Source: Nemertoderma westbladi
Taxonomy: Eukaryota; Animalia; Xenacoelomorpha
Direction of reading: 5' to 3'
Length of the DNA: 64,000 bases
Assembly (NCBI GenBank): GCA_032718475.1
Contig: JAUCBJ010002811.1
Span: forward strand, 1 to 64,000
Part shown: one piece after another, positions 9,517-53,479 of the stretch
How the letters are laid out: every line of letters begins with the position of its first letter
How positions within the stretch are numbered: the first letter of the stretch is position 1
Notes under the pieces: model-generated
Seen by the model: only the letters and a program-made list of their open reading frames with translations
The model's database searches: none
What the model was told of the DNA's origin: nothing
Program-made: the position numbers and the translations under genes

Positions 9517-10758
9517 TGTAAAAGCTTTTGCGGGATATAACTGGCCCTTTTTCTCCGCAATGTACTGTGTAAGGTGTTTTAGAGGACATAACTAGCGATT
9601 TCATCCGCTGTGTCTGCATGTGTGCTTTAGCGGACATAAAAAGCCAGTTTTCCCACAATGCGCTCAAATACTCTAAACTACCTAACTCAAATGACGCAAT
9701 CTACCAACCGATTTGCTGTACGCGTATAGCCTCTTTGTTCTATTCGATCAACCAATCAGAACAATGATCAACCAATCAGAGCGATTTCGCCTTGTGTTGA
9801 ATAAGGGCTGCAAAAACCCGAATAGTTCGGCATTTAGACATTCGTGGAACCTACAGAATCTGGAACTCGGCCAATGAGAGCTGTTTCTCTTTGTGTTGAA
9901 AGATACCCACAACAGCCCAGAGGGATCAGTGTGTTGGTTTTCCAGAGCCCAGAACATCGGCTTTGGAATTATTCTGCTTTAGCCCAACATTAGTGGGCTT
10001 AATCATAGAAACGTATATCTGTTATCTTACTTAACTAATCAATGCAAATCATATTGTCAACTACAAACACCGCATTTTACTATTTACTATTCACTATTTA
10101 CTGTCTATTATTGATTATGTCAGTTGATGGAATGTTATTATATTGGATAATATCGATAGATAAATAATCGTAAACCCCAATCTTCTTGATATACTGAAGG
10201 TAAGAGACCGGTTACATATAACAGTTGCGACTCACATTAAAGTGGTTTGTAGTGAATCTAATGCTATTTCATAGGCACTACATGTGTTGGTTACTGTTCT
10301 CTTTATATGTGACTAAAATTAGTGAAGGTCAGCAGATCAGTGTGCAGTATAGTGCGGTAGTGTGCATGATTGGGACTGATAACAAAGCATCTCCTAAAGA
10401 ATGCGCTATATACGTGAATCCATAGCCATCCCGTTGTGTCTAGTGTAAGTCATAACTCTGTTTACATATTTAGAGCGCCACGTCCTAAAGGAACTGTTAA
10501 TATTTCCCGAAAGTGAATAATATTTGTCATAGATTATATATTAACGATCAGTCGAATAATACAGTAGGCCTACACAGCAATAAGGTTAAGCTTCCGAATC
10601 CAGTCTCCCGGGTATATCCAGCGGGTGAATGGTCGCGCATAGACTGGCTTCGGCTAATGTAGTGTATCAAATACTCGTCATAGGCTAAAGTCGATGTACA
10701 ATCTAGAAGACATCCAAATTTGGCAGGTTAAACTGCTAAAGGTCTGAAAGCGCGTACA
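9517..10758 (+). repeat. A 5' LTR
   Basis: TGTAAAAGCTTTT...GAAAGCGCGTACA; near-identical to 25166..26070; CCAAT boxes near 9750-9780. Confidence 0.9.
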
Positions 10759-10769
10759 ATAACAGATAT
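10759..10769 (+). promoter_or_regulatory. A primer-binding position, complementary to own LTR 10015..10025
   Basis: ATAACAGATAT vs ATATCTGTTAT, 11/11 complementary. Confidence 0.75.
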
Positions 10770-12658
10770 TGCTTCTTTATTGCAACGTAGGCAATAAAGC
10801 TGAAGTACCGGCCAACCGGTACCCAGTAGGCCTGACTACCTAACCACCCGGACCGGTACTTACAGCAGTACAGGAACAGCAGTATTATTCGATTTTGATA
10901 TTGTATACCGGTAGGCCTTAATATTAAATCAGGGAGGGCCCGCCCTGGTTTTTTATTGAGATTTTACTTATTTCTGTCAGGTTTTATTTATTTGTAGGTT
11001 AATATTGAGCAGAAGACGTGTAAGCCTGCTCAGATTGTACAGATAATTTGTAGGCTGGACTGTTGTTAAGTCTGAAGGGACTGTAGTGTGTGTAGAGCGT
11101 ATGTCCGAAAAAGTACTAGTTAGGAAAGTAGGGGCTTCCAGTGCTGTGAGGTAAACCCCCTCGAAAGAATAAGTCGTACTACTCGGTTAGAACGCATACT
11201 AACTAACCATTTCGGAGTCTGCATATACTGTAGTTTATTTAGGCTTGATAGTAGTCTGCCAGCGTTTGGTCTGTACTTTGTTTGTGTAGTCTGTACAGGT
11301 AGCGTAATATTTATTATTCAGAGTTTATGCGATTATTCGCAACATTCATATCCCCAAGTTTATTCCTGCAGTAATTGTGCTTGTTATATATACCGTTATA
11401 GTTAAACTAACCCCGGTACTACATCAGGGCTGCTTGGCGTAGGTAAAGACTGGTGATTTTGTGCCCCGGTCACTCCAGCAGATACCGTGGTTCTTTTAGC
11501 TGTTCAAGTATTTTTAACTACTGATTATTTGTTGTATAAGTACTTGTACCTAATTTAGGGTTTAGTGTACAGTGCTTTCCGAAGGTGATTAGTGTGTAGG
11601 CAGTATATTTGTGTTGTAAAGTGGTTAATAGGCACGTTGGTTCTGGTAGACCGCGGTAATTAACTTCTAGGTAGAAACACTCCGTGATACATAACGTAGT
11701 ACTTATAGCGATACGGCTATAAGTCGTCAGACGGTGGTATTTTTCCTATCTGGACAACGCAATATATTTACTACTACTTATTATTTTCAAATACCGTAGA
11801 ATCCTGTCCGTTTGTAATAACCAGATATTCGAACCCTTTGTTAGGCTGGTTTTTAGACTTCTTGTAAAATTACCCTAAAAATTCGTACTTATAATTTTTT
11901 GTGTTTATTTAGAGATTGTAATCTCACCCCGAATTGTACGTAATCTATAGTATTAAGTAACTTAGGTAAATTAGAATTATTTGTTTTAGTGTCCAACAAG
12001 TAGCACTTCACTGAGAGCGTACAGCTTCTGTGTAGTGACTCCTTCCCAGAAATAATAACATTTATTTCAAACATTGACAAAACCCATAAAACGGGTACAC
12101 AAATATTATAAATCAACTCAAACCGATTTATAAAATAGTAGGCCTGTCATACATCAATTAGGTCTAAATATCAGTTGGACCACTGCTTAAATAATGGTAA
12201 TAAGGTAAAGTAAAGTAGCCAAGTAACCCTTAAAAATTCAGAAATTTAATTATTCTAAGATAATTGACATACCGGTATTTACAATAGGCTTATTATATTT
12301 ATTTCTATAAATTTAGGCTGAAATTATACCGGTATTCTGTAATTAATTCTAGTCCATAATTATACTTATATATACTATAAGTGTAAGCTGTATACCGGTA
12401 TTCACGATAGGCCTATTATATATTTATATATATTTGTGCTGAAATTACATACCGGTATTCTGTGACAAACCTAGTCTGTAATAATACTTATATATATATA
12501 CTATAAGTGTATACCGGTATTCTAATATATTATATATATATATCACACTACACTGAGTAGCAGTATCGGTAATTAATTACTAGCCTAACAGTGATACTGA
12601 ATTACTAGACTTGCTTTAACTGTAATATAGCAGTAGGCATTCAACTGTACAAACAAAC

Positions 12659-14638
12659 ATGTCTGACACAAAGCAAAACCTGTCAGACAGTCTCCTAGAT
12701 ACAACCATCTGTGACCCAGACAGGAGTGTGGAACGTGTGAGACCGAAGTTCAACTCACCTCCTACTGTAAGAAAGATCATCCCTCCAGTAGTAGTATCAC
12801 ACCCTAGGCTAGTCCAACACCGTAGGTCTATCATAGGCACTCGAGCTCAAGTCAAGCGAGACCAAGAAGCAGCGGAACAGCAGCAACATTCGAGCCGAGA
12901 ACGTATTTCTCAGCGGCCCGATAGCTCCAGTAGTGAGGATACTGTAGAGCTGACACCCGAGCGCGGAGCAAAGATGACGGATGCGGTTTATTCGGATCCC
13001 CTTCTCATCCTTCCTGCAGCCGTACTCACTAGGGTATTGATTGCGGTGGAAGAACACCAGATTGATTGGGCGAGAAGTAAGCGATCGACCAAGGATAGTT
13101 ATGCGGGATACACAAGGGAAGAACTGAAGTCTATTGTCGAGTCGCAATGGAACTTCCTCGGACCCGGACTCCCGTTTGACTTATCGGAAGCTGCCTGGGA
13201 AGACATACACAGGATGGGAGTAACAAAAGAAACCATCGATCCAGCTGTGTGGAAGAGGTCAGCAGCAGGATACGTACAGGGATTCTTCAGCTCTATGGAG
13301 CGATTAGAGAATCAACTGTTTCGACAATCCCAAGGACCTCAAGAGCAGGGAGAGCTGCTTTATCAAGTTAGAGAAAGAATTCTAAGAATCAGACTAATCT
13401 TATCGGCCTTTGAAGAAGCTTCAAAAAGAAGACAAGACACGTCGTTGCAGGTTGCCGTAAAGACTTGGTTTCAACGGGTGAGTCTCCAGGTTCAAGGAAC
13501 GGCCCAGTGGAAAGCTCAGCTGGATGAACGCTCAACCCATGGAGAATCAACAGACGCTACCTTTTCCCAAGTGGAAAGCGAAGCGACAGCAGAGAAACCG
13601 CATAAGAGGGATGCTATTGACATCTATCTGTCAGACTATCAACGCTTTGTAGGTGATGAAGAGTTGAGGAGAAGGCTAGATGGACTTAGCCCTAATAGTG
13701 AAGGAGCCAAGCTTGTGTTGGACGCAATCGACGCGGATATGAGAGCTGCGAACCAAGCTAAATTTGATGAACGCCTCCGTATCGCTAGAGTCCAAGAAGA
13801 ACAAGTAACGAAAAAACGTATAGAAGACAGAAAGACAGCGGCAGTGGCAGCAGCAGTGGCAGCGGCAGAAGCAGAAAGAAAGGCGGCAGAGGTAGAAGCC
13901 GAAAGAAAGGCGGCAGAGATAGAAGCGGAAAGAAAAGCGGCAGTAGCAGCGGCAGAAGCAGAACGGAGAGCGTCTGAAGAGATCGCCCAACTAGATTTGG
14001 AAAATATTCAAGAGAATCAAGACTGCATAAATAAACAGTTAACAGCTAGTCAAATGCAGATGATGAGTCGATCTACTCCCAAAAGACAGGGATATACATC
14101 ATCTGAGGAAGGCGATACAACCGATACTGAAGGCGGAGGAAATAGATCTCGTCTAAGCAGACGTAGAAGAATATCCCACCATCAGAAATTGCCTGATTTG
14201 CCCCCAGCTGTTAGAAGGCAACTAACTAACACAAACTTAGGTAGTACAGAACCCACAGACCAAATAATTAACATAGGAAGACTCCCTACTATAGTAGATG
14301 AGCCTGAAATAATTAGGCCTGTTCCCGAAGCCACCCCTTCGGTGATAGAGACACCTGTACTCCCTGAACCTACCTCTAAATTCCCTCTGCACAGCACTAA
14401 GCTACCTGTGCCCCACAGAACCACCCTTGAAAATGTTCATGTCCTGGACTCCGAGCGAAATATTAATGATTTGTCGCCCGTTGTCCCTCGTCCGCCCGCT
14501 ACAACGTTGGCACCTCCCGCTTCGGCGGTCGAGTGGGTAGATGAGGGACGACGGGAGATGGGTCTCCTGCTCGGGCAGCTGAGGGAACAACATTCTCGCT
14601 CCTCTCAGCAGGTCCAGGAGATGGAGGGAACTGTGCAG
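12659..14638 (+). pseudogene. BEL A gag, N-terminal part (interrupted by Gypsy)
   Basis: Homologous to B and C gag; continues at 19226-19231 after TSD TGCAG. Confidence 0.88.
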
Positions 14639-14910
14639 TATAGTGCGTCCTGGTGAAGGGATATTATATATGATGGATATACTGTATTACTTTATTATCG
14701 AGTAGGATCTAAGTGTTACTTGACAGTACCTACCGGTATATATACATATTAGATATAATTGAGCTGACAGCAGAACAGTGTTTTACAGCCGTGCTACCAC
14801 AGTACTGTATCGGCCGGTACGTCATATTGGTGACCCGGACAATTGAATTATTCTGACCATTTTTAATTAATAATACATTAACGTGCTGAGATAATTCTGT
14901 AAATTATAAC

Positions 14911-15795
14911 ATGGCTACCGGAAGCGATACGAATACGATCAAACCACCACCGTTTCAGGACTCCAGTAATCAAAATAATAGCGGCAGCGGCAGCATGTCT
15001 GCACTCTTGGACGTGTCACGTGTGGCAGTAAAGCCACCCGTGTTCTATTGGTCAAATCCGACGATTTGGTTCCGTACGATTGAATCGCACTTCGTCCTGG
15101 CAGGAGTAACGAACGAGCAAACGCAATTTCACCACGTTATGGCCAACCTTCCGGAAGACGTAGCTCTAAATATAACACCGGAAGTTATATCTTACAGCGA
15201 AATTAAATCAATCATCCTACAATTATATCAGAAAACTAAGTCAGAGTTATTAGAAGAAGCGCTTGGCCAAGTATCCATGGAAGGGCAAAAACCCTCGCTA
15301 GTCTACATGAGAATTAAACGCAAGATGGCAGAATGTCAACTTACCGCGGACGACGATGTTGTAAGACATAAACTGTTACAAGCTCTTCCTTCATCAGCTC
15401 GTTCAACATTACTCGGTCATATGAATCTTCCTCCAGAGGACTTCGCTAAACTTGCAGACACCATCCTGCAATTCACAAACCAACAGAACGTCCAAACACC
15501 ACTCCCTACCCTCGGAGCTACTGCTGTTTATCGACCACCACCCACCCAAAATCAACAACCATACAACTCACGGTCGAGTAACCACAACCATGCCGGAGCT
15601 GTGGGCGTTTCTGGTACGATTTATCCATTCTCAGAGGGTCAAAAACCTAAGGTTTGTAGATTTCACATATACTATGGGGAACGGGCTAAACGTTGTAAAC
15701 CATGGTGTCGTTGGCCGGGTAAGAAACCCAAAACTATAGACCCGTCATCCCGCCCACAATCGCGACCAAACTCACCGAGTCGACCGGAAAACTAG
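14911..15795 (+). CDS. gag: Gypsy Gag
   Basis: KPPVFY..NP..WF..IESHF and CRFHIYYGERAKRCKPWC, typical of CsRn1-type Gag. Confidence 0.9.
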   Translation: MATGSDTNTIKPPPFQDSSNQNNSGSGSMSALLDVSRVAVKPPVFYWSNPTIWFRTIESHFVLAGVTNEQTQFHHVMANLPEDVALNITPEVISYSEIKSIILQLYQKTKSELLEEALGQVSMEGQKPSLVYMRIKRKMAECQLTADDDVVRHKLLQALPSSARSTLLGHMNLPPEDFAKLADTILQFTNQQNVQTPLPTLGATAVYRPPPTQNQQPYNSRSSNHNHAGAVGVSGTIYPFSEGQKPKVCRFHIYYGERAKRCKPWCRWPGKKPKTIDPSSRPQSRPNSPSRPEN

Positions 15796-15830
15796 CAGCC
15801 CTCAGTGCAGCGGCTGCGAGCGCTGAGGGC
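15786..15830 (+). promoter_or_regulatory. -1 ribosomal frameshift signal gag/pol
   Basis: G GAA AAC just before the gag TAG, then hairpin GCCCTCAG...CTGAGGGC; the -1 frame reaches protease FLIDTGS. Confidence 0.8.
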
Positions 15831-18800
15831 GCTGCTGTATTTAAAACTACCGCAGCAATCTCTAACTCAGTATGCGAAATAGAACACAAACTACCATTTT
15901 TAATAGATACAGGATCTCAAGTTTGTATATTACGACCCGAACCTGTTAAACAGTTTATATGGGAATCAACACCAGTACAACTGTGCGCTGCTAGCGGTAC
16001 CCCTATAACAGTATACGGTAAAGTAAACCTACAACTATCAATATTAAGACGCAAATTTCCTTGGAAATTTTTTGTAGCGGATGTGAGGGATAATATTATT
16101 GGAATTGATTTTCTTTCTAATTATGATATGCTTTTAGACTGTAAAAACCGTGAAATAATAGATGGAACTACAAAAATACGGAGTACAGTATCTTTTGTCG
16201 AGGCATCCGAGACACAATCGGTATACAAAGTTGAATTAAGTCACTCAGATGGAAATATAGATACACTATTGAAAGATTTTGCCGACTTATTTGACCAAGA
16301 TTCAGCATTCTCCAGTAATTCTGCATCAAATACTACTCATCGAATAATAACAGGAGATAGCCCACCAATTGCAGCCAAACCGCGGCAGCTAAATTGACAG
16401 AAATTAGCAGTTGCAAAACAAGTTTTTACAGACTTACAGGAACGGGGAATTATTTGCCCTTCCAAAAGTCCCTGGGCCTCACCTCTTCATATGGCCCCTA
16501 AAGCAAATAAAAAAGACCAATGGCGTCCGTGTGGCGACTATAGAGCACTAAACAGAATAACTAAACCTGATAGATACCCATTACCTCACATTCAGCACTT
16601 CACTTCACAGTTACGAGGTTCTAGAATTTTCAGCCGAATAGACTTAGTCAGGGCCTACAACCAAATTGCAATGTCAGAGGAAGATATTCCTAAAACAGCA
16701 GTTACAACACCATTCGGTCTATTTGAATTTACTAGGATGCCGTATGGCCTATGTAATGCAGGGCAAACATTCCAACGCAAAATGAATGAATCTCTAGGTG
16801 ATTTATCATTTGTTATTCTATACATGGACGATATTCTAGTACACAGTACTGATAAAGACACTCATTATAAACATTTGCGACTCATATTTGAAAGACTGCA
16901 TAACAACAACTTAAAACTAAACTTTACCAAGTGCGAATGGTGCAAAACTGAAATTACATTTCTTGGATTTCGGGTTTCTGCAGATGGTATTTTACCTCCC
17001 CCTGAAAGAGTCACTGCATTGAACTCAATTCCAGAACATCGTAGTTACAATGACTTACGCAGGGTCATTGGCATGTTCAATTTCTACCGTAGATTTATCC
17101 CAGCATTTAGTGAAATTAGTCACCCTTTACAGACTTTATTAACATCTACACAACCTAATAAACGTAAAACACAACAATGCGATTTTAAAGCTAATGAGTG
17201 GCTCCCAGAACATTCAGCGGCCTACGATAAACTTAAAACTGCTTTGGCCAATGCTGTTTTATTACACCACCCTTCCAAGGGCGATTGTCCATTATCACTA
17301 ACAACTGATGCTTCAAAGTTTGCTATTGGTGGAGCCGTTCACGAAATACGATCCACAGAAGACTCAGTTCCTCTTAGTTTCTTCTCGCGTAGGCTCACTC
17401 CTAAAGAATCTCAATTATCAACCTACGAGCGTGAATTCTTAGCTGCATACGACAGTGCGGTCCATTTCGGATCCTTGTTAGAGGGAAGAAACGTTATTTT
17501 ATATACAGACCACAAACCAATAATCGGCGCGTTCAATAAACCAGAGAGTCTATCCCCACGCCAGAACCGTCAACTGTCTTTATTGGCTGAATTTATTGAT
17601 AAAGTAGAATATATCCCAGGAAATTCTAATATAGTCGCGGATACACTCTCTCGACATGTGAACTCAACATACATTGACCCATTTGGTTTAGATGACATTG
17701 CAAATGCCCAGAAGGAAGACACAGATCTTCTGTCAGATAAACACCCATTTGATATTAAGATATTTAAAACTGCATGCGGGAGGGATGTAATATGTGATAT
17801 TTCAACTACATATCCCCGGCCAATTATTCCAGAATCATTTAAGAAGGAGGTTTTCAATGAGATTCATAACTTAGCACATCCAGGCATTAAAACCACTCTC
17901 CGTCTGATCACAGACCGATTCATATGGAACAATGCGAGGAGAGATATAACAAGCTGGTGTCGTAGCTGTATCCCATGCCAGCAATCAAAGATAACCCAAC
18001 ATATAAAAGCCCCATTGAAACCATTCCCTCCAGCCCCACGGTTTTCACACATACATTCCGACATTGTAGGTCCACTACCTACAGATAATCATCCATACCC
18101 ATATGTAGTAACGTTTATAGACAGACATACAGGATGGGCTGAAGCCACTCCGGTTATATCTATTACCGCAGCTGCCACAACCACAGCCTTTGTTGAAACA
18201 TGGTTCTGCAGATTCGGTGTTCCTCTATACATCACCACAGACCGCGGCGGCCAGTTTGAGTCTGAGTTGATGTCCGACCTTTCCAAATTAATAGGCTTCC
18301 ATCGGTTAAGAACGACAGCATACCATCCTCAAGCAAACGGGAAAGTTGAACGTTTCCACCGAACTTTGAAAGCTGCCCTAAAAGCTCGTAAACAAGACTG
18401 GTTAGAATCTCTTCCAATAGTTTTATTCAGTTACCGCATTACACAATCCCATGTAACCGGAATCTCACCATTTGAACTGGTGACTGGCTCAAAAGCATTA
18501 CTACCTGCTTGTTTGGTGGCACCTACTGATATGAACTTTAATTTAGATTATGTCAACAAATTACACAACCACATCACCGAGTTAGGGTTTATTGTGCAAT
18601 CTACAGATGGTACACTGAATAAAAATCAACGTTCATACGTCCCAAAGTCCTTAGAAAAATGTGAGAAAGTCTTTGTAAGAATCGACCGCGCGAGAAAAGC
18701 CCTTCAAGCTCCCTACCAAGGACCATTCGAGGTCATCGAGCGGTGCGAGAAATATTTCAAACTATTAACCCCAAGTGGTGACCAAAATGTCTCCATCGAT

Positions 18801-19001
18801 CGACTTAAACCTTACATAGTAACTGATACGGCGTGGAAACCCAAGCAAAACAGCGATAACCTAGCAAAATCATCCCCAAAGACAGTTAAACAGCATTTAC
18901 CTATTCCCCAAAGAGAAACTGAAAGTAAAACTGACAAGGAGCAACCATATAACACTATCACTACACGTAGGGGAACGAAAGTCCATTTTTATCCTCCCTA
19001 A
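15789..19001 (+). pseudogene. pol: Gypsy Pol (PR-RT-RH-IN) with one in-frame TGA at 16395-16397
   Basis: [48 protein letters not shown]; frames 16083 and 16491 are the same. Confidence 0.93.
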
Positions 19002-19225
19002 TAAAACCTCATGTTCCACTTCTGTTATGGGGAGATATATAGTGCATCCTGGTGAAGGGATATTATATATGATGGATATACTGTATTACTTTATTATCGA
19101 GTAGGATCTAAGTGTTACTTGACAGTACCTACCGGTATATATACATATTAGATATAATTGAGCTGACAGCAGAACAGTGTTTTACAGCCGTGCTACCACA
19201 GTACTGTATCGGCCGGTACGTCATA

Positions 19226-22096
19226 TGCAGCAGTTAAAGGGAACAATTAGAGAGAGTAGGTTAGAGTTGCAAGAAGTGCAGCAAAGTATCGCGTTAGAAC
19301 GCGATAAATTAGTAAATACACAAAAGGGTATACCACCACCCCCTGTAACAATGTGTCAACCTGTTAGGTCTGAAGTATTTCATGCGCAAGGTGTGGAGCC
19401 TACACGCATCTATACTGCTAGCGAAGTGGAAACTCCTATAGTAAACCCTATTAAGGGTAATTATAAACCTGTTGACAATGATATTCCATATAGACTTGAT
19501 AATAATCCGAGAAATTTATATACCGATAACTCGATATTAAATAACACGATGGCCCAAGAAAGTTTAACGCGTCAAATGGCTAGAACCGAAGCCCGTCAAG
19601 CGGTAAAGTTGGGAGAGATCGTCAAGTTCAATGGAGATGAGATGAAATGGTTACCTTTTAATGAATATTACAAAGATAACATACAGAACTCTGTGCTATC
19701 AAACGGAGAGAAACTTAGATTCCTCATCGAGTGCTTGGAAGGATCTCCCAAGTTAATGGCGTTAAAGTTTATTGGACATCCTGATGGATTAAGACAAGTT
19801 TGGGATACCCTAAACATCAGGTATGGTAATAGGAATAACATAGCTAGGTAAGTCTCATGAATATCAGAGTTCTATGGTTATTGGAGCTGTGGCCTCTACT
19901 TTACCGAAGGGTGGAGTAGGTACACGCTGGGATAAGAAAGTGTTATATATGATGGAACAACAACGACGAGACCCTACCATGGCTGATCTCATGTCATTCT
20001 TGGATGGAGAAGTGAAATTACAACTCCTAAAGCAGTCCATAGAGAAGACACCGGAAAATAAGGTAAGTGAGAAACCCGTTTCTAGGAGAAGGGTAATACC
20101 AGTGTGTTATACAGACGACGGCGAAAGCCAGGCTTCTCAAGAGGAAGACAGCGGGAAAGACACTGAAAGATCTTATTATGTCAACAAAACGCCCAAAGAT
20201 GTAAGTAAATTCAGGTCTCGAACCAATGACAGGAGAGAACAGGTAAGAAAAACCCCTCCTACGTCTCCTAAAAGAATTCAGGTAAGAAAGCCCGAAGAAA
20301 GAACGAGTGTGCACAACGTTATTCAAAATAAGGTAAGTAACATCAAACCGAAATGTGCGCTGTGTGACGGGCCCCACCGTTTGAATGTGTGTGATGAATT
20401 CCTAAAGAAATCATTAACGGATAGACGGGAAGTCATGTGGGATAAGCGGTTGTGTTATAATTGCCTCAGACGAGGACACCAACGGCGAACCTGTTACTCC
20501 GACGCAAGGTGTGCAAAGTGCGGCGCAAAACATCATATCTTGTTGCACACTGAATTCGAACGAAACAGCCCGAGTCAGGTAAGTGAGTCCGAACTACATG
20601 TCCAATTCAGTGATGTGAACGACACTGACCAAAGTTCTGAGATGGAAGGATTCTATACGGATGAATTCTCCGACGAAAATGAATCCTGTTACCTGATAAA
20701 TACCGCAGTGTATCGAGCACTTACGTATGAAAAGGACACCGACAGCGAGCTCTCCCTAACTACTTCTGACCGACAACCATCTTGGAAAGCACCAACTTCC
20801 AATGTAGGAATCCGAGAATTTCCTGTAGTACAGTTGAGGGTCCACGGACCTAAAAGGAGTTATATAGTGAACGCCCTCCTTGACTCCGGTAGCACAGGAA
20901 CATTCATCGACAAAGAACTAGCCGAAGACATCTTTGCTGGACAACCCAAGTTCCGAACTAAGTTAAACATGTCAGGAATTATGCAGGTTTGGAAATCTAC
21001 AGTAATAGCGGATTATTATATAGGTGCGTTGTCCACCCCCCAGGATGAACTAGGAGAACACAGCATAAGGTCAGTAAAAATGGTGGCGATAAAGAACTTC
21101 GCTAACAGCCAAGTAGAACCTTACAACTGGGATGAGGACGATTTCACCCAGCAGCTTGATATACCTAGATTCAACACAGACTACCCTGGAGTGCAAATAC
21201 TCATCGGCCAAAATGCGCATGAGGCGCTTGAGACATTGGAGAAACGGCCTGCTCAACCGCAACCACTACAAGCCTATGCGGGAAGAACAAGAGTAGGTTG
21301 GTACCTCACTGGACCTTCCCGTAGGACACTCCTAGAAAGGCTACCCAAAGATCGGGTCCATCAAGAAAGTGAATGGGAAGTGGAGAGCAGTGAGGGAGAC
21401 GACCCAACTGAGGGAACACCATACTCCTCAGATAATGACGATATTAACTCCAATGTAGATCAATGGAGACATTGCCCCGAGACGATTAATCTAGCCGACA
21501 TCACTTCCAGAGGAGCAATTCCTCAAGAACTGACAGATACTCCAGACTGGTTAGGTGGACCCGACTTCCTATACAAAGAAGAAGAAGAATGGCCTCCTCA
21601 TCTTACTACAGCGGAGATTAGACAGGCCAAGGGAGCGGAGAAAGTCAAACCTAAAACTCGGGCGAGTAAATCGAAGTTATTTAAACCCGTGATAGATCTG
21701 TCTGTACTACACATTGCCAGGGACGACGCTGTGGATCTAAACTCCCCCACCGCGAACCGATCTGTTGTGGAGATCAGAGAGAGAGACTGGAGATCTGGAA
21801 CACCAGACGTCTCGCCGGGACTCTCACCTCTCCTGCCGGGAGCGATGGACCACTATAGATCCTGGAATCGGCTTTGTAAGGCCATCGTGTATTTGAAGCG
21901 ATGTTTCTATCGTCACTATTCCAGGACGAAGAGGAAACCTGGAATTGTCTTCGAGACGCAGCAGCTCAATCGCCCAGTTGGTCGTTTATGTTTACTGGAA
22001 CGAGACCGAGAACTGTCCGGAAACTATGGAAGGCAAGATACTCTTCCCACGACCACCTCCCTAATCCAACAAACATCTAGGGACTCCCCAACGTAA
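19226..22096 (+). pseudogene. BEL A gag C-terminus, protease and fused pol remnants
   Basis: KFNGD..W..F (DUF1759-like), three Cys/His knuckles, ALLDSGS; 104-nt deletion at about 19848 relative to B shifts the frame. Confidence 0.9.
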
Positions 22097-23730
22097 CAGC
22101 GTCTGGAGTGGGTGTGTGACTATATTATTTTATATTTGTTTTTATTATTTTATATTTATGTATGTATTATTATGTAATTTTATTATAATCGTTTTCTTTA
22201 ATTTTATTTAGTAGAATGTTATTTTAGCGATTATTTAGTAGATTAGTGCAATATATATTCGCGTTTACTACTTAATTACTTATATATTATATATTTAGTG
22301 CGACGGCGAGAAATAATTCTTTTTCTCTTTCCTTACTGTCCGTATTACATTATAAATGCGTGACTACAGTAAGATGAAATGTCCGTACTTCTTAAAGTAC
22401 AATAAAGCTCCTACTATATTCAAGTATTATTGGTAAAGTAGAGTATTAGGAATGCAAAATTCAGATCCTCATGTCTCGGCTAAACCAAGCTCTGGGTAGA
22501 CCTTGGAAACGACTTGCCTCTTCTCACTGACATTGCTTCGTGCGATATTGCTCTCATACCGTATCTTAAATAATACATATAGTAGCGTGATGTCCCTTTA
22601 ACAGTAGCGTACAATGCAAAATAAATCTGTTAAACCCTTTGACCATCTGCAATTCTAGTCGATTAAGATATCGCGGCACCCACCGATATACTTGAAAGAC
22701 AAATTTCTAGAATCAGTGGTTAACGTCCCCAGACAAGTTCTGGAATAAACTGGTGCCCATCCTAAATATTAACTATTAATATTTACAAAATCTGTCAAAT
22801 TTTAGATCCTTTAAAATTCTAGTCTATTAAGATATCGTAGCACTTACCGATATTCTTAAAAGATCAATTTCCTAGAATCAAGGATCCCAGTCCCCAGATA
22901 TGCTCTGGAATAAAATTGTGTCTATTTAATATTAAATAATAAAATTTACGGGAATAAATTTAAATTCATCTTTTAATGAATTTAATAAATTGTCATTTTT
23001 ATGCAATTTATAACATTCCCAAAATTCCATAAATTAATAGATCATGGGAGCGGAGATTCACCCTATTAAGTATATTAGTGTGCGAGAATCTCCAATATAT
23101 AGTCAATAGCCGATAAAATTCATAAAATCATGTATAAAGAGAAATATTGACAATTAAAGAATTACTATTAAATAGCATCCCAGATCTGTATGCATGAGAA
23201 TTACCCTAATTCTACTGCTAGCTTTCCATAATGTCACCATGGCAACAACCACGCTAGAATTAGAAGTGAGTTAAAAGAACAATAAAGCTTGCCCATTGAA
23301 TAGCATAAGGAATAAATAGCACACTGCTAGTATCCAAGGATACATAATAATAACGTGACATTCTGGAAGGCACTGACTAATGGACAAATGGCCCGAATGT
23401 GTGCGGTTTGTGACAGTTGTGTGGAATTTGTGCGTTTATAGGCGAATGTTACTACTAAAGTGTGTTTACAGTAGCGAGTCGCAATTGTGAAAGTAGCCCT
23501 AACTCTCCAGTAAGAACCTGAAGTAAATCTAAGCCTTTGGGACGGACAGTGGAGTGACTTGTGCCGGTTGTCGTTGTCGTTGTGTAGCTACTACGTTGGC
23601 GAAAACACAGCGGCGACGGTACATCGGCGCTGAGGATCTTGCACTGTCCGGGGGCAGAGAGGGGTAGGCAGCGACGCCCGCTAGCCTAAATATAAACTCA
23701 TTATAATATTGATAAACTCATATAGCAGAT

Positions 23731-25087: not shown

Positions 25088-25165
25088 CTGTTTAGAGTAT
25101 TTTTATATTTTAGAAACTGTGATTTTTTATATTTTATAGAATTAAATCCCATTTTCTGGGAGCGG

Positions 25166-26070: not shown

Positions 26071-26080
26071 TATTGGCTAT

Positions 26081-36164: not shown

Positions 36165-36174
36165 GTAACTAAAA
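36165..36174 (+). promoter_or_regulatory. D primer-binding position, complementary to own LTR 35991..36000
   Basis: GTAACTAAAA vs TTTTAGTTAC, 10/10. Confidence 0.7.
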
Positions 36175-36304
36175 CCAACCGCTGCCCTAGCTAGCCAAAC
36201 CATCAGCCACCAATCACCAAAGGAGATGAGTCGAGAGAAAGGAACGACACCGCCGCGGACCCCGGACGGCGATCTAACGATCCGCGAGGCCGCGACGAGA
36301 CGGT

Positions 36305-39600: not shown

Positions 39601-39954
39601 AAGGAGGCGTGTTGCATACACACGCAGGACTGACACAGTGCGAGGGGGCATTACATGGGCAGACACCGCGTATACCGAGGGACGAGCGGGGGTCGTCGAG
39701 GGCTCTAATGCCAGCGCACATACGAAGGGGGAGGCCAGCAAAGGTGGCACCGAAGAGAGTGTGGCGAAGAGTTAGAGGACGTATAGGAGGGCAGCAGGAG
39801 AGTGCCTACTGGAAGAAGGGGCACCTGAGAGTTTTTAGTCGTCCAAAGTTTTGGACTGAGGGGGGTGGGAATGAGGGCGAGACGCCCTTCCCACGCACAA
39901 AATATAAAATAATTATTTAATTAAAATAAGAAAATAATTAAATAATAGAGTAGG

Positions 39955-41590
39955 TAGAAGTTAGGTAGTAAGAGTTAGTTAGTTAGTTAGTTAGTTAGAG
40001 GGTGGTACGTAGTACCGTTAGTTAGAGTTAGAGAGTTAGAGGGTACGTAAGTACCGCTAGTTAGTTAGAGAGTTAGAGGGTACGTAAGTACCGCTAGTTA
40101 GTTAGAGTTAGAGGGTACGTAAGTACCGCTAGTTAGTTAGAGAGTTAGAGGGTACGTAAGTACCGCTAGTTAGTTAGAGAGTTAGAGGGTACGTAAGTAC
40201 CGCTAGTTAGTTAGAGTTAGAGGGTACGTAAGTACCGATTAGAGAGTAAGAGTTAGAGGGTACGCAGTACCGTTAGAGAGTAGGAGTTAAGGGGTACGTA
40301 GTACCGTTAGAGAGTAAGAGTTAGAGGGTACGTAGTACCGTTAGTTAGTGGAGTTAGAGTAAGAGTTAGAGGGTACGCAGTACCGTTAGAGAGTAGGAGT
40401 TAAGGGGTACGTAGTACTGTTAGAGAGTTAGTAAGAGTAAGAGGGTACGTAGTACCGCTAGTTAGGGGTGTTAGTAGTAGCAGTAGAGGGTTGTGGGCAC
40501 CGTAAGCGCCACGTAGTTAGAGTTAGTAGGGAATGCGCTGAACTTAGTGGGGCACGGGCGTGATGACGTGTTTGATGTAAGAGCAGGGTATGTTAATTAG
40601 GGTGGGTGCCGGGCACAAGAGGTGCCGGGCACAAAAAGAGTTAGTAGTAGAGTTAGTTGAGTTAGTAGTAGAGTTAGTTGAGTTAGTAGAGAGTTAGTGG
40701 AGTTAGTAGAGTTAGTTGAGTTAGTAGAGAGTTAGTAGAGTTAGTAGAGTCAGTAGTAGTTCACATAATTAACGTACCCACTCTGCCGGCACTCAGAGCG
40801 TCACGTGTAGGCGATGAGACGTAAAGGGGGAGTAGAGGAGTAGAGACGGGCACATTGGGTGCCAGGTGGTAGAAGAGTAGAGAGGGCACATAGGGTGCCA
40901 GGTAGTAGAGTTAGAGTGTTAGAGGTAGTAGAGAGGGTACATAGGGTACCAGTGAGTAGAAGAGTAGAGACGGGCACGTAGGGTGCCAGGTAGTAAAGTT
41001 AGAGTGTTAGAGGTAGTAGAGAGGGCACATAGGGTGCCAGAGAGTAGAAGAGTAGAGACGGGCACGTAGGGTGCCAGGTAGTAGAGTTAGAGAGTTAGAG
41101 ATAGAGTAGAGTAGTAGAGAGGGCACATAGGGTGCCAGGTAGTAGAGTTAGAGAGGTAGTAGTGTAGTAGAGAGGGCACATAGGGTGCCAGGTAGTAGAG
41201 TTAGAGAGGTAGTAGTATAGTAGAGAGGGCACATAGGGTGCCAGGTAGTAGAGTAGAGCAGAGAGGGCACATAGGGTGCCATATAGTAGAGTGGTTGTGG
41301 GCACCGCAAGCGCCACGTAGTTAGAGGAGTGGAGTAGAGTTAGTAGAGCTAGTTAGTAGAGTTAGCAGAGCTAGTGGAGTAGAGTTAGCAGAGCTAGTGG
41401 AGTAGAGTTAGTAGAGCTAGTTAGAGTCAAGTAGAGTTAGTAGAAGTAGAAAGTTAGTAGGAGTTAGTTAGACTTAGTAGAGAGTTAGAGTCAGTAGAAA
41501 GTTAGAGGCTCTCAGTTAGAGCTAGAAGTAGTAAGAGTTAGTAGTTAGCAGAGTTAGTTAGATAGTTAGAGTTAGTAAGCAGTAGGTAGA
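39955..41590 (+). repeat. C-poor tandem repeat tract with arrays of short hairpins in element D
   Basis: About 13 GGTAC-G(T/C)A(A)-GTACC units and about 10 GGCAC-ATAGG-GTGCC units in GAGTTA/GTAGA spacers. Confidence 0.9.
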
Positions 41591-44187
41591 TAGTATGATA
41601 GCACAGGGGTAGCATTAGAGATTAAAGCCTTAGGGAGTGACAAGAGAGTGGAGAGGTGATAGTGCGGAGTGCGGAGATAGTGGTGTAAGTACTATAGTCA
41701 TACAACCTTTCTCAATTAGCTACTGGGACTGGGGGGCTAAGTGACTATGGCACTAGGGACAAGACGCCAGACGATTTCACATTTCCTGAGTGCGACGGCA
41801 CGGAGGGGGGGTGAGATTCGTCAGAAGGGATAAGGTAGTCAAGGAGGGATGGAGTAATAGTGCGGAGTGCGAAGAGAGCGTGGGCGCAATTCAAGTGTGG
41901 GGGAGGAGAAGTGAGAGGAAGAGTGTGGGACGAGGAGGTCCGGGAGTATGCGAGAGTTGGAGTAGAGTGGTGAGAGTGTTGGGGAAACAAAAATTGTGTG
42001 AGAGAAGCGCACGATCGGCCCGACACGAGACGCCAGAGGGTAGTGATATCATACCCATAGGGAGCGGCCTGGAAAGCCGGCTCCGAGAGAAAAGGATTCC
42101 ACCCCACACCCGATACTAGATCGGGATCCAGCGGGATTGTAGCGCACTTTTTTGGTTGATGCTATCTTCTTACCGGGAAGATAGCATGGGGGGGAGTGTT
42201 AGCTTATTCAATCCCGCTAACATCCCATAAAGTTATAAGCCGATAAGCAATATTGGGAGCCGCGAGATTGGGTGATAACCAACTCGTGCCATCCCAATAA
42301 GAGTGGGAAGGAAACACACAATAAAGGGTCAGGGGCCAAACCCCTAACCCAGAGAGAACAGATGGAGTGAACGGGAACACTCCACGGGGTGCCAACAAGG
42401 GTATCAACCAATCAGAGGGGGGCAAGGCATCGATTAGGTAGTAATTAGGCCAACCGTGCAATATAACCAGTAACCCAATATCAGTAATTCAGTTATCTCA
42501 GTGCAGTAGTGCTAGCATAGGTTAATTAGTTTAGATAGGGGAGCACGGGACTTTTAGTTACCGTATCCCGCCTTCCATATACTATACAATATATCTATAT
42601 CTTATACCTCTATTATTATACACCGAACTTCAGAACTCATTTTACTTTCATTCACTCTTTATACACGGCGGGGACGCGTGAACTAAATACCGGATAAATC
42701 GGGATCCCTCCTGGATCCCGTCACAGGTTACTTTACTTTACTTTATTACCGTTATTTAAGCAGTAGTCCAACTGATATTAAGACCTAATTGTTGTATGAC
42801 AGGCCTACTATTTTATAAATCGGTTTGAGTTGATTTATAATATATATATATATACCCTTTAATGGGTTTTTGTCAATATTTGAAATAAATGTTATTATTT
42901 CTGGGAAGGAGTCACTACACAGAAGCTGTACGCTCTCAGTGAAGTGCTACTTGTTGGACACTAAAATAAATAATTCTAATTTGCCTAAGTTACTTATTAC
43001 TACAACCTATGTACAATACGGGGTGAGATTACAATCTCTAAATAAACACAAAAATTACACGTACGAATTTTTAGGGTAATTTTACAAGAAGTCTACAAAC
43101 CAGCCTAACAAAGGGTTAGAATATCTGGTTATTACAAATGGACAGGATACTACGGTATTTGAAAATAACAAAGCAGTAGTAAATATACTGCGTTGTCCAG
43201 ATAGGAAAATACCACCGTCTGACGACTTATAGCCGTGGCGCTATAAGTACTACGTTATGTATCACGGAGTGTTCCTACCTAGAAGTTAATTACTGCGGTC
43301 TACCAGAACCAACGTGCCTATTAACCACTTTACAACACAAATATACTGGCTACACACTAATTACCGTCGGAAAGCACTGTACACTAAACCCTAAATTAGG
43401 TACAAGTACTTATACAACAAATAACTAGCAGTTAGAAATACTTGTACAGCCAAAAGAACCACGGTATCTGCCGGAGTGACCAAAGCATAAAATCTTCAGT
43501 CTTTACCTACGCCAAGCAGCCCTGATGTAGTACCGGGGTTAGTTTAACTATAACGGTATATATAACAAGCACAATTACTGTAGGAATAAACTTGGGGTAT
43601 GAATGTTGCGAATAATCGCATAAACTCTGAATAATAAATATTACGCTACGCGTACAGACTACTCAAACAAAATACAGACCAAACGCTGGCAAACTACTAT
43701 CAAGCCTAAACAAATTACAGTATATGCAGACTCCGAAATGGTTAGTTAGTATGCGTTCTAACCGAGTAGTACGACTTATTCTTTCAGGGGGATTTACCTC
43801 ACAGCACTGGAAGCCCCTACGTTCCTAACTAGTACTTTATTGGACATACACTCTACACACACCACAATCTCTTCAGACCTAACAACAGTCAGACAACAGT
43901 CCAGCCTACAGATTACCTGTACAATCTGAACAGGCTTACACGTCTTCTGCTCAATATTAACTTACAAATAAATAAAACTGACAGAAATAAGTAAACCATA
44001 CAAAGGAATAAGGGGTGATCAATCCCTAATCCCCTAACAGCCTACCTGTATACAATATCACAATCGAAATAATACTGCTGTACCTGTACTGCTGTAAGTA
44101 CCGGTTCGGGTGATTAGGTAGTTAGGCCTACTGGGTACCGGTTGACCGGTACTTCAGCTTTATTGCCTACGTTGCAATACAGAAGCA

Positions 44188-44198
44188 ATAACTGTTAC
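44188..44198 (-). promoter_or_regulatory. B primer-binding position, complementary to own LTR 44919..44929
   Basis: Sense GTAACAGTTAT vs ATAACTGTTAC, 11/11. Confidence 0.75.
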
Positions 44199-45366
44199 TG
44201 TTCGCGCTTTCAGACCTTTAGCAGTTTAACCTGCCAAATTTGGATGTCTTCTAGATTATAAATCGACTTTAGCCTATGACGAGTATTTGATACACTACAT
44301 TAGCCGAAGCCAGTCTATGCGCGACCATTCACCCGCTGGATATACCCGAGAGACTGGATTCAGAAGCCTTGACCGTATTGCGGTGTAGGCCTACTGTATT
44401 ATTCGACTGATCATTAATATATAATCTCTGACAAATATTATTCACTTTCGGGAAATATTAACAGTTCCTTTAGGACGTGGCGCTCTAAATATGTAAACAG
44501 AGTTATGACTTACACTAGACACAACGGGATGGCTATTGATTCACGTATAAAGCGCATTCTTTAGGAGATGCTTTGTTACTAGTCACAATCATGCATACTA
44601 CCGCACAATGCTGCACACCGATCTGCTGACCTTCACTAATTTTAGTCACATATAAAGAGAACAGCAACTGATACATGTAGGGCCTATGAAATAGCATTAA
44701 ATTCACTCCAATACCACTTTAATGTGAGTCGCAACTGTTATATGTAACCGGTCTCTTACCTTCAGTATATCAAGAAGATTGGGGTTTATGATTATTCATC
44801 GATTTTATCCACATATAATAATATTCCATCAACTGATATAATCAATAACAGACAGTAAATAGCAGTAAAAATGCGGTGTTTGTAGTTGACAATATGATTT
44901 GCATTGATAGGTACCACCGTAACAGTTATACGTTCCTATGATCAAGCCTACTAATGTTTGGCTAAAGCCTGAAAACACAGAAATTCCAAGCCGGTCTTCT
45001 GGCATTAGGAAAAAAGGTAAACATTAACCCATAATGCGATTTCCTGGAGGTTTCTGTACAAATAACAGGAGAATCGCTCTGATTGGTTGACCGAACAAAG
45101 AAACAACAGAGAACAAAGAAAGAGTTACACATGTACATATCAGCTGTTAGCTGTCGTCATAGTAACTACACTGTATCAAGAGGATTTTAGCGTATTGCGA
45201 CATAGAATTGCTAGTTATGTCCGCTAAAGTACACATACAGAAGAAATGGCTTTTTATGTCCACTAAAACACCGGTACAGTAAGGAAACGGCATTTGATGT
45301 CCGTTAAAACACCTACAAAGTACTTTGCGGGGAAAATAACCAGCTAATTCCGCAAAAGCTTTTACA
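44199..45366 (-). repeat. B 5' LTR
   Basis: Sense TGTAAAAGCTTTT...GAAAGCGCGAACA. Confidence 0.92.
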
Positions 45367-49739: not shown

Positions 49740-52700
49740 TTTTGCGGACATAACAAGTCATTTTTACGCAATGCGCAGAATACTCTAAAATAGCCCTAAA
49801 TTTATCCAACTATGCGACGGGAAGGAATTGGAACCCAGATTACGAAATCTATCAGCTGATTCTTTGTGGACGTGGAGGTTCTTTGTTCTGTCTTTTTCAG
49901 CCAATCAGAGCAATTTTCACTTTATGTCTAACAGAAACCTATGGAAACTCACGCAATGCATTACGGTCTTTGTTTACTATTTTCTGAGCATCAGAACTAA
50001 CTCAGAATTTTCTGTGCTTCTGTGTGGAAGTTTCAGACTTTGGCCTAGGAACATCAGATGGCCTTGATTATAAGAACGTAAATCTATTAACTGAACATGC
50101 TACAATGAACACTGAAACATCATCGTAACACTCTCTACATACCATTGAACACTGACTGTTCACCGCATTATTTTACTTCTGTTTATAGTACCTATTAATT
50201 GTTGTTATATTAATGGATATTGATGTTATATTTGGAGAATACCGATGAATAATCATAAACCCCTCAATCTTATTGATTACTGAGGTAAGAGGAATAGAGT
50301 TTACCGGTAGCAACTGCGACTTAAATTATAGTGGTTTGTGTGAATTAAATGCTATTTCATAATCCCTACGTGTGTCAGTTGCGATCCTCCTTATATATGA
50401 ACAAATTCAGTGACGGTCGGCAGATTAGTGCGAACTAGTGTGAAGTAGTGTGAAGGTTAATAAAGCATCTCCTAAATAATGCACTACTTACGAAACTCTG
50501 TGGCCATCTAGTTGTGATTAGTATAAGTCATAACTCTGTTTTTATACTTAAAGCGCCATGTCCTAAAGGAACTGGTAATATTTCCCCGAAAATAAATATA
50601 GTTGTCAGAGATTATATAGTAGCGATCAATCGAATAATACAGTAGGTCTACACTGCAATAACTCTCAAGGAATCCGAATCCAGTCTCCCACACCGTGGGT
50701 CATACGCCGGGCACAGACTGGCTTCGGCTGATGTAACTTCAGTACACTAGGTAATTGATAAAGGCTAAAGTCGATTTATAAACAAGAGGACAACTAAAAT
50801 TGGCAGGTTAAACTGCTAAAGGTCTAAAAGCGTGAACATTAATATATTTCAAGTTTCTTTATTGCGCCGTAGGCAATAAAGTCGAATGTACCGGTCGGAC
50901 GGTAAGCTGTAGGCCTAATCACCCGAACCGGTACTAACAGGTACAGCAGTATTATTTCAATTGTGATAATTATATACCGGTAGGTCTTAATATTTAATCG
51001 GGGACTGCAGCCCTGGTTTTTATTGAGATTTTACTTATTTCTGTCAGTTTTATTTATCTGTAATTGTAATATTGAGCAGAAGGCGTGTAAGCCTGCTCAG
51101 ATTGTATAAATAATTTGCAGGCCGGATTGTTGTCTAACTGTTGTTAGGTCTGAGGCGATTGCAGTGTGTGTAGAGTGTCTGTCTGATAAAGTGCTAGTTA
51201 GGAAGGTGGGGGCATCCAGTGCTGTAAGGTAAATCCCCCCCGAAAGAATAAGTCGTACTACTTGGTTAGAACGCCTACTAACTAACCAATTCGGAGTCTG
51301 CATATACTGTAGTTTATTTAGGCTTGACAGTAGTCTGCCAGCATTTGGTCTGTGTTTTATTTGAATAGTCTGCACGGGTAGTGTAATATTTATTATTCAG
51401 AGTTTATGCGAGTATTCGCAACCTCCAATTCCCCAAGTTTATTCCTACAGTAATTGTGCTTGATATACATACTGTTATAGTTAAATTAACCCCGGTACTA
51501 CATCAGGGCTGCTTGGCGTAGGTAAAGACTGGTGATTTTGTGCTCCAGTCACTCCAGCAGATACCGTGGTTCTTTTGGCTGTTCACGTATATTTAACTGC
51601 TGGTTATTTGTTGTATAAGTACTTGTACCTAATTTAGGGTTTAGAATACAGTGCTTTCCGAAGGTAATTTAGTGTGTAGGCAGTATATTTGTGTTATAAC
51701 GTGGTTAATAGGTACGTTAGCTCTGGTTGGCTTCGATAATTAACCTGTAGGTAAGGACACTCCAGGTACATAACGTAGTACTTATAGAGTTTAAGACTAT
51801 AAGTTGTCAGATGGTAGTATTTCCTTATCTGGACAACGCAACTTACTTACTACTGCTTTATTGGTTTCAACTACCGTAGTTTCCTGTCAGTTTGTAAGAA
51901 CCAGAAATTCTAACTCCTTGTTAGGCTGGTTTGTAGATTTCTTGTAAAATTACCCTAAAAATTGTACGTGTAACTTGTTTATTGTTTATTTAGAGATTGT
52001 AATCTCAACCTGATTGTAAGTAATTTGTAGTAATAAGTAACCTAGTAAAGTAGAATTATCTGTATTAGTGTCTAACAAGTAGCACTCCACTGAGAGCGTT
52101 CAGCTTCTGTGTAGTGACTCCTTATCTAGAAATAATAACATTTATTTCATAGCAGTCTATTGCCTATAACAATTGACATACAAGTGTAGGCCTATTTACA
52201 GATTCAGTCAGTCAGAAGTAGGATTACTTTCGGTTTGCGTTTTTCGTACCAGTATCCTGTTTACCTGTTGTCTCTGTGCTTCTGTGTACTGGTATCGAAA
52301 TAGGCTGACACCCGATGTCACCACTGATATACTGACATTGAAACAGTGGGGTGTTACCAGTGTAAAAGCTTTTGCGGACATAACAAGTCATTTTTACGCA
52401 ATGCGCAGAATACTCTAAAATAGCCCTAAATTTATGCAACTACGCGACGGGAAGGAATTGGAACCCAGATAACGAAATCTGTCAGCTGATTCTTTGTGGA
52501 CATGGAGGTTCTTTGTTCTGTCTTTTTCAGCCAATCAGAGCAATTTTCACTTTATGTCTAACAGAAACCTATGGAAACTCACGCAATGCATTACGGTCTT
52601 TGTTTACTATTTTCTGAGCATCAGAACTAACTCAGAATTTTCTGTGCTTCTGTGTGGAAGTTTCAGACTTTGGCCTAGGAACATCAGATGGCCTTGATTA

Positions 52701-53468
52701 TAAGAACGTAAATCTATTAACTGAACATGCCACAATGAACACTGAAACATCATCGTAACACTCTCTACATACCATTGAACACTGACTGTTCACCGCATTA
52801 TTTTACTTCTGTTTATAGTACCTATTAATTGTTGTTATATTAATGGATATTGATGTTATATTTGGAGAATACCGATAAATAATCATAAACCCCTCAATCT
52901 TATTGATTACTGAGGTAAGAGGAATAGAGTTTACCGGTAGCAACTGCGACTTAAATTATAGTGGTTTGTGTGAATTAAATGCTATTTCATAATCCCTACG
53001 TGTGTCAGTTGCGATCCTCCTTATATATGAACAAATTCAGTGACGGTCGGCAGATTAGTGCGAACTAGTGTGAAGTAGTGTGAAGGTTAATAAAGCATCT
53101 ACTAAATAATGCGCTATTTACGAAACTCTGTGGCCATCTAGTTGTGATTAGTATAAGTCATAACTCTGTTTTTATACTTAAAGCGCCACGTCCTAAAGGA
53201 ACTGTTAATATTTCCCCGAAAATAAATATAGTTGTCAGAGATTATATAGTAGCGATCAATCAAATAATACAGTAGGTCTACACTGCAATAACTCTCAAGG
53301 AATCTGAATCCAGTCTCCCACACCGTGGGTCATACGCCACGCACGGACTGGCTTCGGCTGATGTAACTTCAGTACACTAGGTAATTGATAAAGGCTAAAG
53401 TCGATTTATAAACAAGAGGACAACTAAAATTGGCAGGTTAAACTGCTAAAGGTCTAAAAGCGCGAACA

Positions 53469-53479
53469 TTAATAGATTT
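53469..53479 (+). promoter_or_regulatory. C primer-binding position, complementary to own LTR 52710..52720
   Basis: TTAATAGATTT vs AAATCTATTAA, 11/11. Confidence 0.75.

Follow-up and report, generated by a model that had tools for sequence, protein, structure and literature searches.

A 64,000-nucleotide (nt) stretch of the genome of Nemertoderma westbladi (Xenacoelomorpha), referred to here as the window (GenBank assembly GCA_032718475.1, contig JAUCBJ010002811.1, positions 1 to 64,000 of the forward strand), carries four long terminal repeat (LTR) retrotransposons, A, B, C and D, in which the first 10 or 11 bases after the 5' LTR are exactly complementary to a site inside that same LTR. The best reading of this arrangement, and in our judgement a quite probable one, is self-priming: the minus-strand step of reverse transcription would be primed by the element's own RNA, in the manner of the fission yeast element Tf1. 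Directly seen are the pairing, its position right after the LTR, the covariation of its two arms among A, B and C, and the lack of the TGG of a tRNA primer-binding site. Self-priming had been proposed from a sequence-only reading of the window; it has stood as the best explanation in view of shuffles, a Ty3/gypsy control and public families, whereas the parts concerning the transcript start, an independent origin and the identity of D have come out weaker. The positions concerned, together with the control element, are given below.

10015..10025, plus strand: predicted self-primer site of A, ATATCTGTTAT, 744 nt upstream of the binding site
10759..10769, plus strand: primer-binding position of A, ATAACAGATAT, directly after the LTR
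44919..44929, minus strand: predicted self-primer site of B, ATAACTGTTAC
44188..44198, minus strand: primer-binding position of B, GTAACAGTTAT
52710..52720, plus strand: predicted self-primer site of C, AAATCTATTAA
53469..53479, plus strand: primer-binding position of C, TTAATAGATTT
35991..36000, plus strand: predicted self-primer site of D, TTTTAGTTAC, 174 nt upstream of the binding site
36165..36174, plus strand: primer-binding position of D, GTAACTAAAA
14639..19226, plus strand: Ty3/gypsy element nested in A, its TGG primer-binding site at 14828; serves as the negative control
46792-46864: tRNA-Lys(CTT)-like gene, the only tRNA gene in the window

All eight 10- to 11-mers named by the sequence-only reading are present at these coordinates and on these strands. 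The LTR ends were set independently, in D by the identical LTR pair and the target-site duplication (TSD) GGTTA, and in B by LTR pieces ending in CA and the TSD GTGGT; those of A and C were set by homology with the end of B. The longest perfect reverse complement of the leader start within the own LTR is 11 bases in A, B and C, 10 in D and 4 in the Ty3/gypsy control. Among 5000 dinucleotide shuffles, this length was reached 5, 4, 12 and 3 times for A, B, C and D, respectively, and 2989 times for the control; of 899 other leader offsets, it was reached by 1, 0, 1 and 0 (control, 452). When the test was widened to offsets 0-5 with spliced matches allowed, 50, 16, 31 and 8 shuffles per 1000 reached the match of A, B, C and D, and a single element is therefore modest evidence. 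The strength lies in the joint pattern, and as a joint pattern the self-match is real and well above chance. No spliced match in A-D beats the contiguous one.

The absence of a TGG-type tRNA site, which the sequence-only reading had asserted, is borne out: TGG does not occur among the first 20 leader bases in A, B, C, D or the duplicate of C described below. The Ty3/gypsy control has TGG at leader base 1 and no self-match beyond 4 bases. The single tRNA gene of the window matches none of the binding sites over more than 5 bases, and the 3' LTRs of A, B and D hold the same site as their 5' LTRs. As had been claimed, pairing ends at the LTR boundary in 4 of 4 elements, yet chance alone readily yields four non-pairs; what carries information is the start of the pairing at leader base 1. 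The binding site starts with ATAAC in A and with GTAAC in B and D. The D site spans an acceptor-like AG.

The covariation carries much further than any one match. The LTRs of A, B and C can be aligned from about 77 bases upstream of the site through the LTR end, and the alignment places the site at a homologous position in all three, in agreement with the sequence-only reading. Among them, 4 of the 11 pairs are altered on both sides, and one pair position occurs with three pair types. Each of the three binding sequences fits only its own site, the cross-matches having 2-4 mismatches. Pairing in the true register amounts to 94% versus 31-46% in slid registers, a descriptive figure from four related rows. 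As arithmetic only, four variable columns would fall on partner positions by chance 1 time in 330, and five changes would each be complementary by chance about 1 time in 243. In spite of the sequence differences, the far helix end falls on one homologous base in all three elements, and the end of the alignment of A and B about 77 bases upstream of the site is as expected with U3 ending near the site. The A, B and C sites (10015-10025, 44919-44929 and 52710-52720) are also close to palindromic, and nowhere does the aligned LTR vary more than in the 18-20 bases that follow them (6-12 of 18 identical).

A, B and C, one family by their LTR alignment, belong to BEL/Pao by their predicted proteins. 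C has a Pfam match to PF05380 (E 3e-36), A and B to PF03564 (DUF1759). PF05380 is found in 117 of the 117 listed protein relatives of C's RNase H piece, the best of which are BEL/Pao polyproteins. The pieces of C follow the order gag, protease, reverse transcriptase (RT), RNase H, integrase; A and B lack most of RT and RNase H. The termini likewise show BEL/Pao features, namely TG...CA LTRs, a purine tract and a 5-bp TSD (GTGGT in B; the ends of A and C are missing). Only the tRNA-site feature in the text of ICTV, the international committee for virus taxonomy, fails. Since A, B and C are kin, the independent LTR types in the window number two rather than four. D lacks pol and any Pfam match; its zinc knuckles resemble the triple zinc knuckle of B (28% over 65 residues, pairwise E 1e-4), and its Atlas matches lie below 0.9 and are generic CCHC. 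Thus, of the four elements called BEL-type by the sequence-only reading, A, B and C are so by their Pao or DUF1759 domains, and D is so only tentatively, its zinc-knuckle likeness being the sole ground for the label. The pol of C is not of the Ty3/gypsy chromovirus type, which places it phylogenetically outside the Tf1/sushi group. The recognized BEL/Pao clades are Sailor, Suzu, Tas, Flow, Dan, BEL and Pao (PMC6238403; here and below, sources other than PMC8742986 are cited from passages of them).

Exact LTR-end patterns gave 0 matches in metagenome and genome contigs, no relatives of the window elements were found in viral contigs, and a gag-based homolog search returned four weak matches. 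Public relatives were retrieved with the RNase H piece of C aligned to 14 relatives: 79 loci, ranking best among 323 confirmed stretches. The 5' LTR end was placed well enough for use in 18 of them, mostly by a second LTR copy with a different flank (in L024 and L069 by a copy at the contig end, in L030 by an 87%-identical copy). Thirteen of the 18 loci (four families) are of the TGG type, with TGG within a few bases of the LTR. In the four tested, one per family, the self-match is 4-6 bases, a length reached by 981, 996, 113 and 942 of 1000 shuffles. The remaining five loci (four families) have no TGG, and all five have a self-match, of 10-14 bases. In L015, L017, L024 and L069 the match (14, 14, 13 and 10 bases) exists only across a predicted GT-AG intron in the LTR; in L030, 12 contiguous low-complexity bases match after a 4-base spacer. 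Shuffles reached these matches 1, 1, 1, 4 and 5 times per 1000 for L015, L017, L024, L069 and L030. The comparison with shuffles that the sequence-only reading had suggested for public BEL loci lacking a tRNA site thus gave a self-match in 5 of 5 loci without TGG and in 0 of 4 tested TGG-type loci. L027/L029 (10-base match, 9 of 1000 shuffles) do not enter this count, since it was the match itself that indicated where their LTR ends; in the trees they are labelled self-type.

In a blind scan of 28 loci that made no use of LTR ends, 6 gave spliced matches of at least 11 bases, against a mean of 0.6 and at most 3 in 40 shuffled runs. Families already counted account for three of these, and the others, L019, L044 and L077, are three new families. 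At L015, L017, L013, L023-L025, L069, L019, L044 and L077, the binding site is matched only across the predicted GT-AG intron; the binding sites at these loci all start with GT, and the predicted primer ends in AC. In such splice-type relatives only 4-8 upstream exon bases pair. L030 and L009 are sister loci, both with a short spacer after the LTR followed by a self-matching site starting with GTCAA; the LTR end of L009 is not set by a repeat.

Quick trees only were built. In the RNase H tree (71 rows: 46 of the 79 loci, 24 proteins and C), self and tRNA labels are divided by a single branch with support 89, near-copies inflating the associated shuffle test. The named proteins on the self side are from mussel, oyster, coral, bryozoan, ribbon worm, sturgeon and nematode; the tRNA side holds most insect proteins. 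Host taxonomy also tracks the split. With one row per family (33 loci offered), the label changes once on the integrase tree (support 93) and once on the RNase H tree (69). The five public self-type families form one group (support 95 on RNase H). These trees allow a single origin of BEL/Pao self-priming but do not show it. Nor is the opposite claim of the sequence-only reading, an origin independent to this lineage, established, since the signature is wider than the A/B/C family and C forms a long branch without firm placement.

Modelled on Tf1, the proposed sequence of events would run as follows. Transcription would start at the LTR site or slightly before it. In the particle, the site would fold onto the binding position, aided by Gag and flanking helices; a cut after its last base, made by RNase H in Tf1, would free a 3'-OH, and reverse transcriptase, which for A, B and D would have to be supplied in trans because these elements lack RT, would extend the primer. 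Plus-strand synthesis would then copy the primer and overwrite the binding site, keeping the two matched during drift. Copying of the primer into the binding site would explain the covariation without double mutation, and for the same reason the far helix end is predicted to mark the 5' end of the RNA. A splice-type primer would span an exon junction and need not be the extreme 5' end. A broader reading, which is plausible although we are slightly inclined to doubt it, is that a large and old part of BEL/Pao dispenses with tRNA priming and uses two interchangeable forms: a contiguous LTR site (the window elements and L030) or a primer formed when the host splices out an LTR intron (L015, L024, L069, L019, L044 and L077). 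The window family would then be a deep branch, with a loop of about 740 bases and Tf1-like flanking helices.

RNA folding bears on the flanking helices and on the primer helix itself. The elements concerned, with one nearby motif, are these.

36139..36159, plus strand: 8-bp hairpin of D at the U5 end, adjoining the binding site
10577..10585, plus strand: LTR arm of a predicted flanking helix of A, partner 10775-10783, with one two-sided change in B
10775..10783, plus strand: leader arm of that helix, with an alternative partner just downstream that would give a local hairpin
10629..10646, plus strand: LTR arm pairing with the U5 end (10737-10758), predicted in A and B
10200..10205, plus strand: splice-donor-like GTAAGA shared by A, B and C, downstream of the primer site

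D folded from 35991 shows the primer helix in both the minimum-energy and the centroid structures (z -1.8). In constrained folds of A and B, where the binding site was kept single-stranded, two extra helices appear, one between 10577-10585 and the bases after the binding site and one between 10629-10646 and the U5 end; the former falls at a homologous place in A, B and C with the binding site so held open. The U5-end helix was equalled by 57 of 500 shuffles in A and 46 of 500 in B. This layout resembles the 'pretzel' described for Tf1 (bioRxiv 10.1101/2022.12.06.519325), and a Tf1-like pretzel in A and B is a lead suggested by modelling rather than a result. The GTAAGA motif may have a role in making a subgenomic mRNA without the binding site, and its exon end is similar to the donors of the splice-type relatives; there is no GT-AG joint among the joints listed for X1, a single contig-level sequencing run (share 0.11) that is not on record as RNA. 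The X1 contigs include the part of the LTR downstream of the site but neither the site nor the stretch just upstream. This is not taken to mark a start: starts are not visible in contigs, DNA may be what was sequenced, and variability is highest in U3 and in the post-site bases. In two X1 loose ends, each on its own contig, both arms of the leader-side flanking helix have altered letters, and to the eye these look complementary over about 12 bases; same-element origin is not established, and we take this as a hint only.

Several observations weigh against self-priming of the Tf1 kind. The transcript start, the cleavage and the primer are predicted features, none of them observed, and no TATA box lies upstream of any of the four sites. 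The primer helix of A, B and C is AU-rich (-7.9 to -11.7 kcal/mol), closes a loop of 720-750 bases, and is absent when A is folded unconstrained from 10015. The first flanking helix of C appears in a 200-base fold and is weak over the full length, the fold of D has no leader-side flanking helix, and by duplex energy the flanking helices do not exceed shuffles in any of nine elements (shuffles as good, of 500: A 129 and 57; B 140 and 46; C 402 and 372; D 37 and 177; relatives 34-451). The binding site of C does not start with RTAAC. The contiguous matches of the blind scan are at chance level (3 of 28 versus 2.3 expected), the RT piece tree with one row per family has two label changes, and C sits on a long branch outside the public self-type group. 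Finally, the duplicate of C (98% identical) has one uncompensated mismatch; the claim that all changes are compensated thus holds for A, B and C, with 4 of 11 pairs changed on both sides, and not for the duplicate, where the unmatched change probably arose after insertion.

These points leave room for other explanations. The pairing might be a real RNA helix with another job, such as leader folding, a dimer contact, packaging or a translation switch, while something else primes. Indeed, the leaders are rich in conserved hairpins, near-palindromic sites could suit dimer contacts, and covariation proves pairing, not priming. Such a helix, however, offers no reason for pairing to start at leader base 1 across unrelated families; its partner lies exactly at the primer position with no TGG as a substitute, and in the relatives the self-match and the tRNA site are mutually exclusive, all of which makes this account unlikely. 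Improbable, too, is priming by the element's own RNA in a way other than that of Tf1, through a 3' LTR copy, a second RNA in the particle or an internal fragment, with the transcript starting well upstream. It would accommodate the long loop and weak helix of A, B and C, the lack of a core-promoter motif at the site, and the 4-8 paired exon bases of the splice-type relatives, which would otherwise require very short first exons. Against it, the far helix end falls on the same homologous base in A, B and C, as if the RNA ended there, and no AATAAA or ATTAAA occurs within 45 bases before any of the four sites.

A primer taken from the host (a tRNA half, a piRNA or another small RNA), the LTR match being secondary, has a precedent in the half-tRNA priming of some Ty1/copia groups (PMC6317226). 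It is nevertheless very improbable here, as one RNA cannot fit three sister binding sequences that differ at 2-4 positions and are each matched by their own LTR. We give still less credence to chance, or to a functionless inversion or conversion at the DNA level. Single matches do reach 1-5% in the widest shuffle test, and the region is AT-rich and full of inverted nested repeats; yet the site is homologous, three elements show matched changes, another LTR of unrelated sequence has the signature, and so do at least four more families elsewhere, a joint pattern by which this explanation is effectively refuted.

Self-priming by the element's own RNA thus has its closest parallel in the Ty3/gypsy chromoviruses, that is, Tf1/Tf2 of Schizosaccharomyces pombe, Tj1, Tosmo and the Tf1/sushi and Tcn1 groups. 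The Tf1 primer is 11 bases long; the RNA's 11 initial bases anneal to the binding site, and cleavage by RNase H falls between bases 11 and 12 (PMC7175516). At its 3' end, about half of Tf1 cDNA retains the binding site as a single-stranded copy (PMC11042837). Like the Tf1 group, A, B and C have no tRNA site and have 11 post-LTR bases complementary to an LTR site (PMC7175516, PMC4600332); the Tf1 binding site starts with ATAAC (PMC11042837), similar to those seen here, and flanking duplexes of the same layout are possible (bioRxiv 10.1101/2022.12.06.519325). Unlike the Tf1 group, the window elements are BEL/Pao (PF05380, DUF1759, triple zinc knuckle; D tentatively), A, B and C would close a 720-750-base loop, flanking duplexes are not statistically shown, the system is known here from sequence alone, and relatives build the match across a predicted splice junction. 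Self-priming is described for Tf1/sushi, Tcn1 and the TAR group of copia, the criterion being 10 bases at 0-5 from the LTR (PMC6317226). For TAR (Houba, Osr-1), which are plant Ty1/copia elements, it was predicted by a sequence test of the same kind (PMC6317226). A, B, C and D all show at least 10 bases at 0-5 after the LTR, although they belong to another superfamily and kingdom.

With Belpaoviridae, as the ICTV names BEL/Pao, the window elements share the domain content and order (seen in C), 5-bp TSDs, TG...CA LTRs of 0.5-1.2 kb and a purine tract before the 3' LTR. They lack the 18-base site for tRNA-Arg or tRNA-Gly through which the ICTV text has these elements primed, a text that also calls their replication poorly understood (PMC8742986). 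We found no BEL/Pao self-priming in the searchable literature, whose coverage leaves out older BEL clade descriptions, Repbase Reports and survey supplements. It is absent from PMC8742986 and from passages of PMC6317226, PMC3601003, PMC4600332, bioRxiv 10.1101/2022.12.06.519325, PMC5443660, PMC11042837, PMC7175516, PMC13524379, PMC8220671, PMC6238403 and PMC3286476. Searched by term, the BEL/Pao surveys PMC3118150, PMC554778 and PMC8556966 yielded no passage relevant to a primer-binding site, tRNA or priming, and PMC6238403 none relevant to a primer or tRNA. The binding-site starts were not found in one eLife supplement, nor was a control tRNA motif, so that this search is uninformative. The mechanism is therefore known, and its presence in BEL/Pao appears undescribed.

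The elements themselves form a nest that fills the window, with A inside B, D inside B and the Ty3/gypsy element inside A.

9517..26070, plus strand: element A, BEL/Pao-type and non-autonomous, with gag and protease followed by an internal deletion of most of RT/RNase H
9517..10758, plus strand: 5' LTR of A, 1242 bp, TG...CA
25166..26070, plus strand: 3' LTR of A, truncated, 97.5% identity to the 5' LTR, purine-rich tract directly before it
9336..45366, minus strand: element B, same family as A, TSD GTGGT
26081-26924 and 9336-9516, minus strand: 3' LTR of B in two pieces, divided by A
44199..45366, minus strand: 5' LTR of B, 1168 bp
31093..35250, minus strand: reading frame of B with DUF1759 gag domain, triple zinc knuckle and protease motif
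35636..42725, plus strand: element D, inside B, TSD GGTTA, gag-like zinc knuckles only
52361..53468, plus strand: 5' LTR of C, 1108 bp; no 3' LTR of C in the window
49740..50849, plus strand: duplicate of C's LTR and binding site (LTR 49740-50838; site 50080-50090; binding site 50839-50849)
59164..62238, plus strand: broken pol of C in several short frames, with an RT-like piece, Pao peptidase/RNase H (PF05380) and an integrase zinc finger

A is inserted within the 3' LTR of B in the opposite orientation. The two LTRs of D are identical 529-bp copies (35636-36164 and 42197-42725), which together with the GGTTA duplication indicates that D moved recently. C begins at 52361 and extends beyond the expected place of its 3' LTR, and a second, 98%-identical copy of its LTR and leader occupies 49740-52149. 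The Ty3/gypsy element (14639-19226) has near-identical 189-bp LTRs with TA...AT rather than TG...CA ends, a 4-bp TSD, GCAG, and a largely open pol.

Further features of the nest were recorded. The B 3' LTR remnant at 9336-9516 (minus strand) lacks about 138 bases of the 5' LTRs, and run X1 lists a joint that skips the same stretch. At 26070-26081, the 3' LTRs of A and B abut head to head at nearly the same homologous base, and a short repeated unit lies at the joint. B holds an insertion at 29025-30119 with a DDE_Tnp_1_7 (piggyBac-like) fragment. A 604-base insert with 188-base direct repeats, 88% alike, lies within the duplicated C LTR (49126-49729). B inserted into the sequence at 2688-9360 and 45349-46430, which carries a GIY-YIG fragment as well as an RT frame with a 15-base tandem repeat after it. 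The internal region of D after the gag-like frame (39978-41600) consists of purine-rich tandem repeats.

On the broader reading given above, BEL/Pao self-priming would have an ancient origin or else several origins, and BEL/Pao would be the third LTR superfamily so primed. If part of the superfamily primes itself, the definition of the family would require amending, and LTR finders that demand a tRNA site would miss or misplace such elements. Retrotransposons can be silenced by 3' tRNA fragments acting at the primer site, a route that would be inapplicable here. The splice-built primer of the relatives would, in turn, link replication to host splicing. Because the signature predicts the exact transcript and cleavage ends of each element, priming becomes testable by sequencing in a little-studied group.

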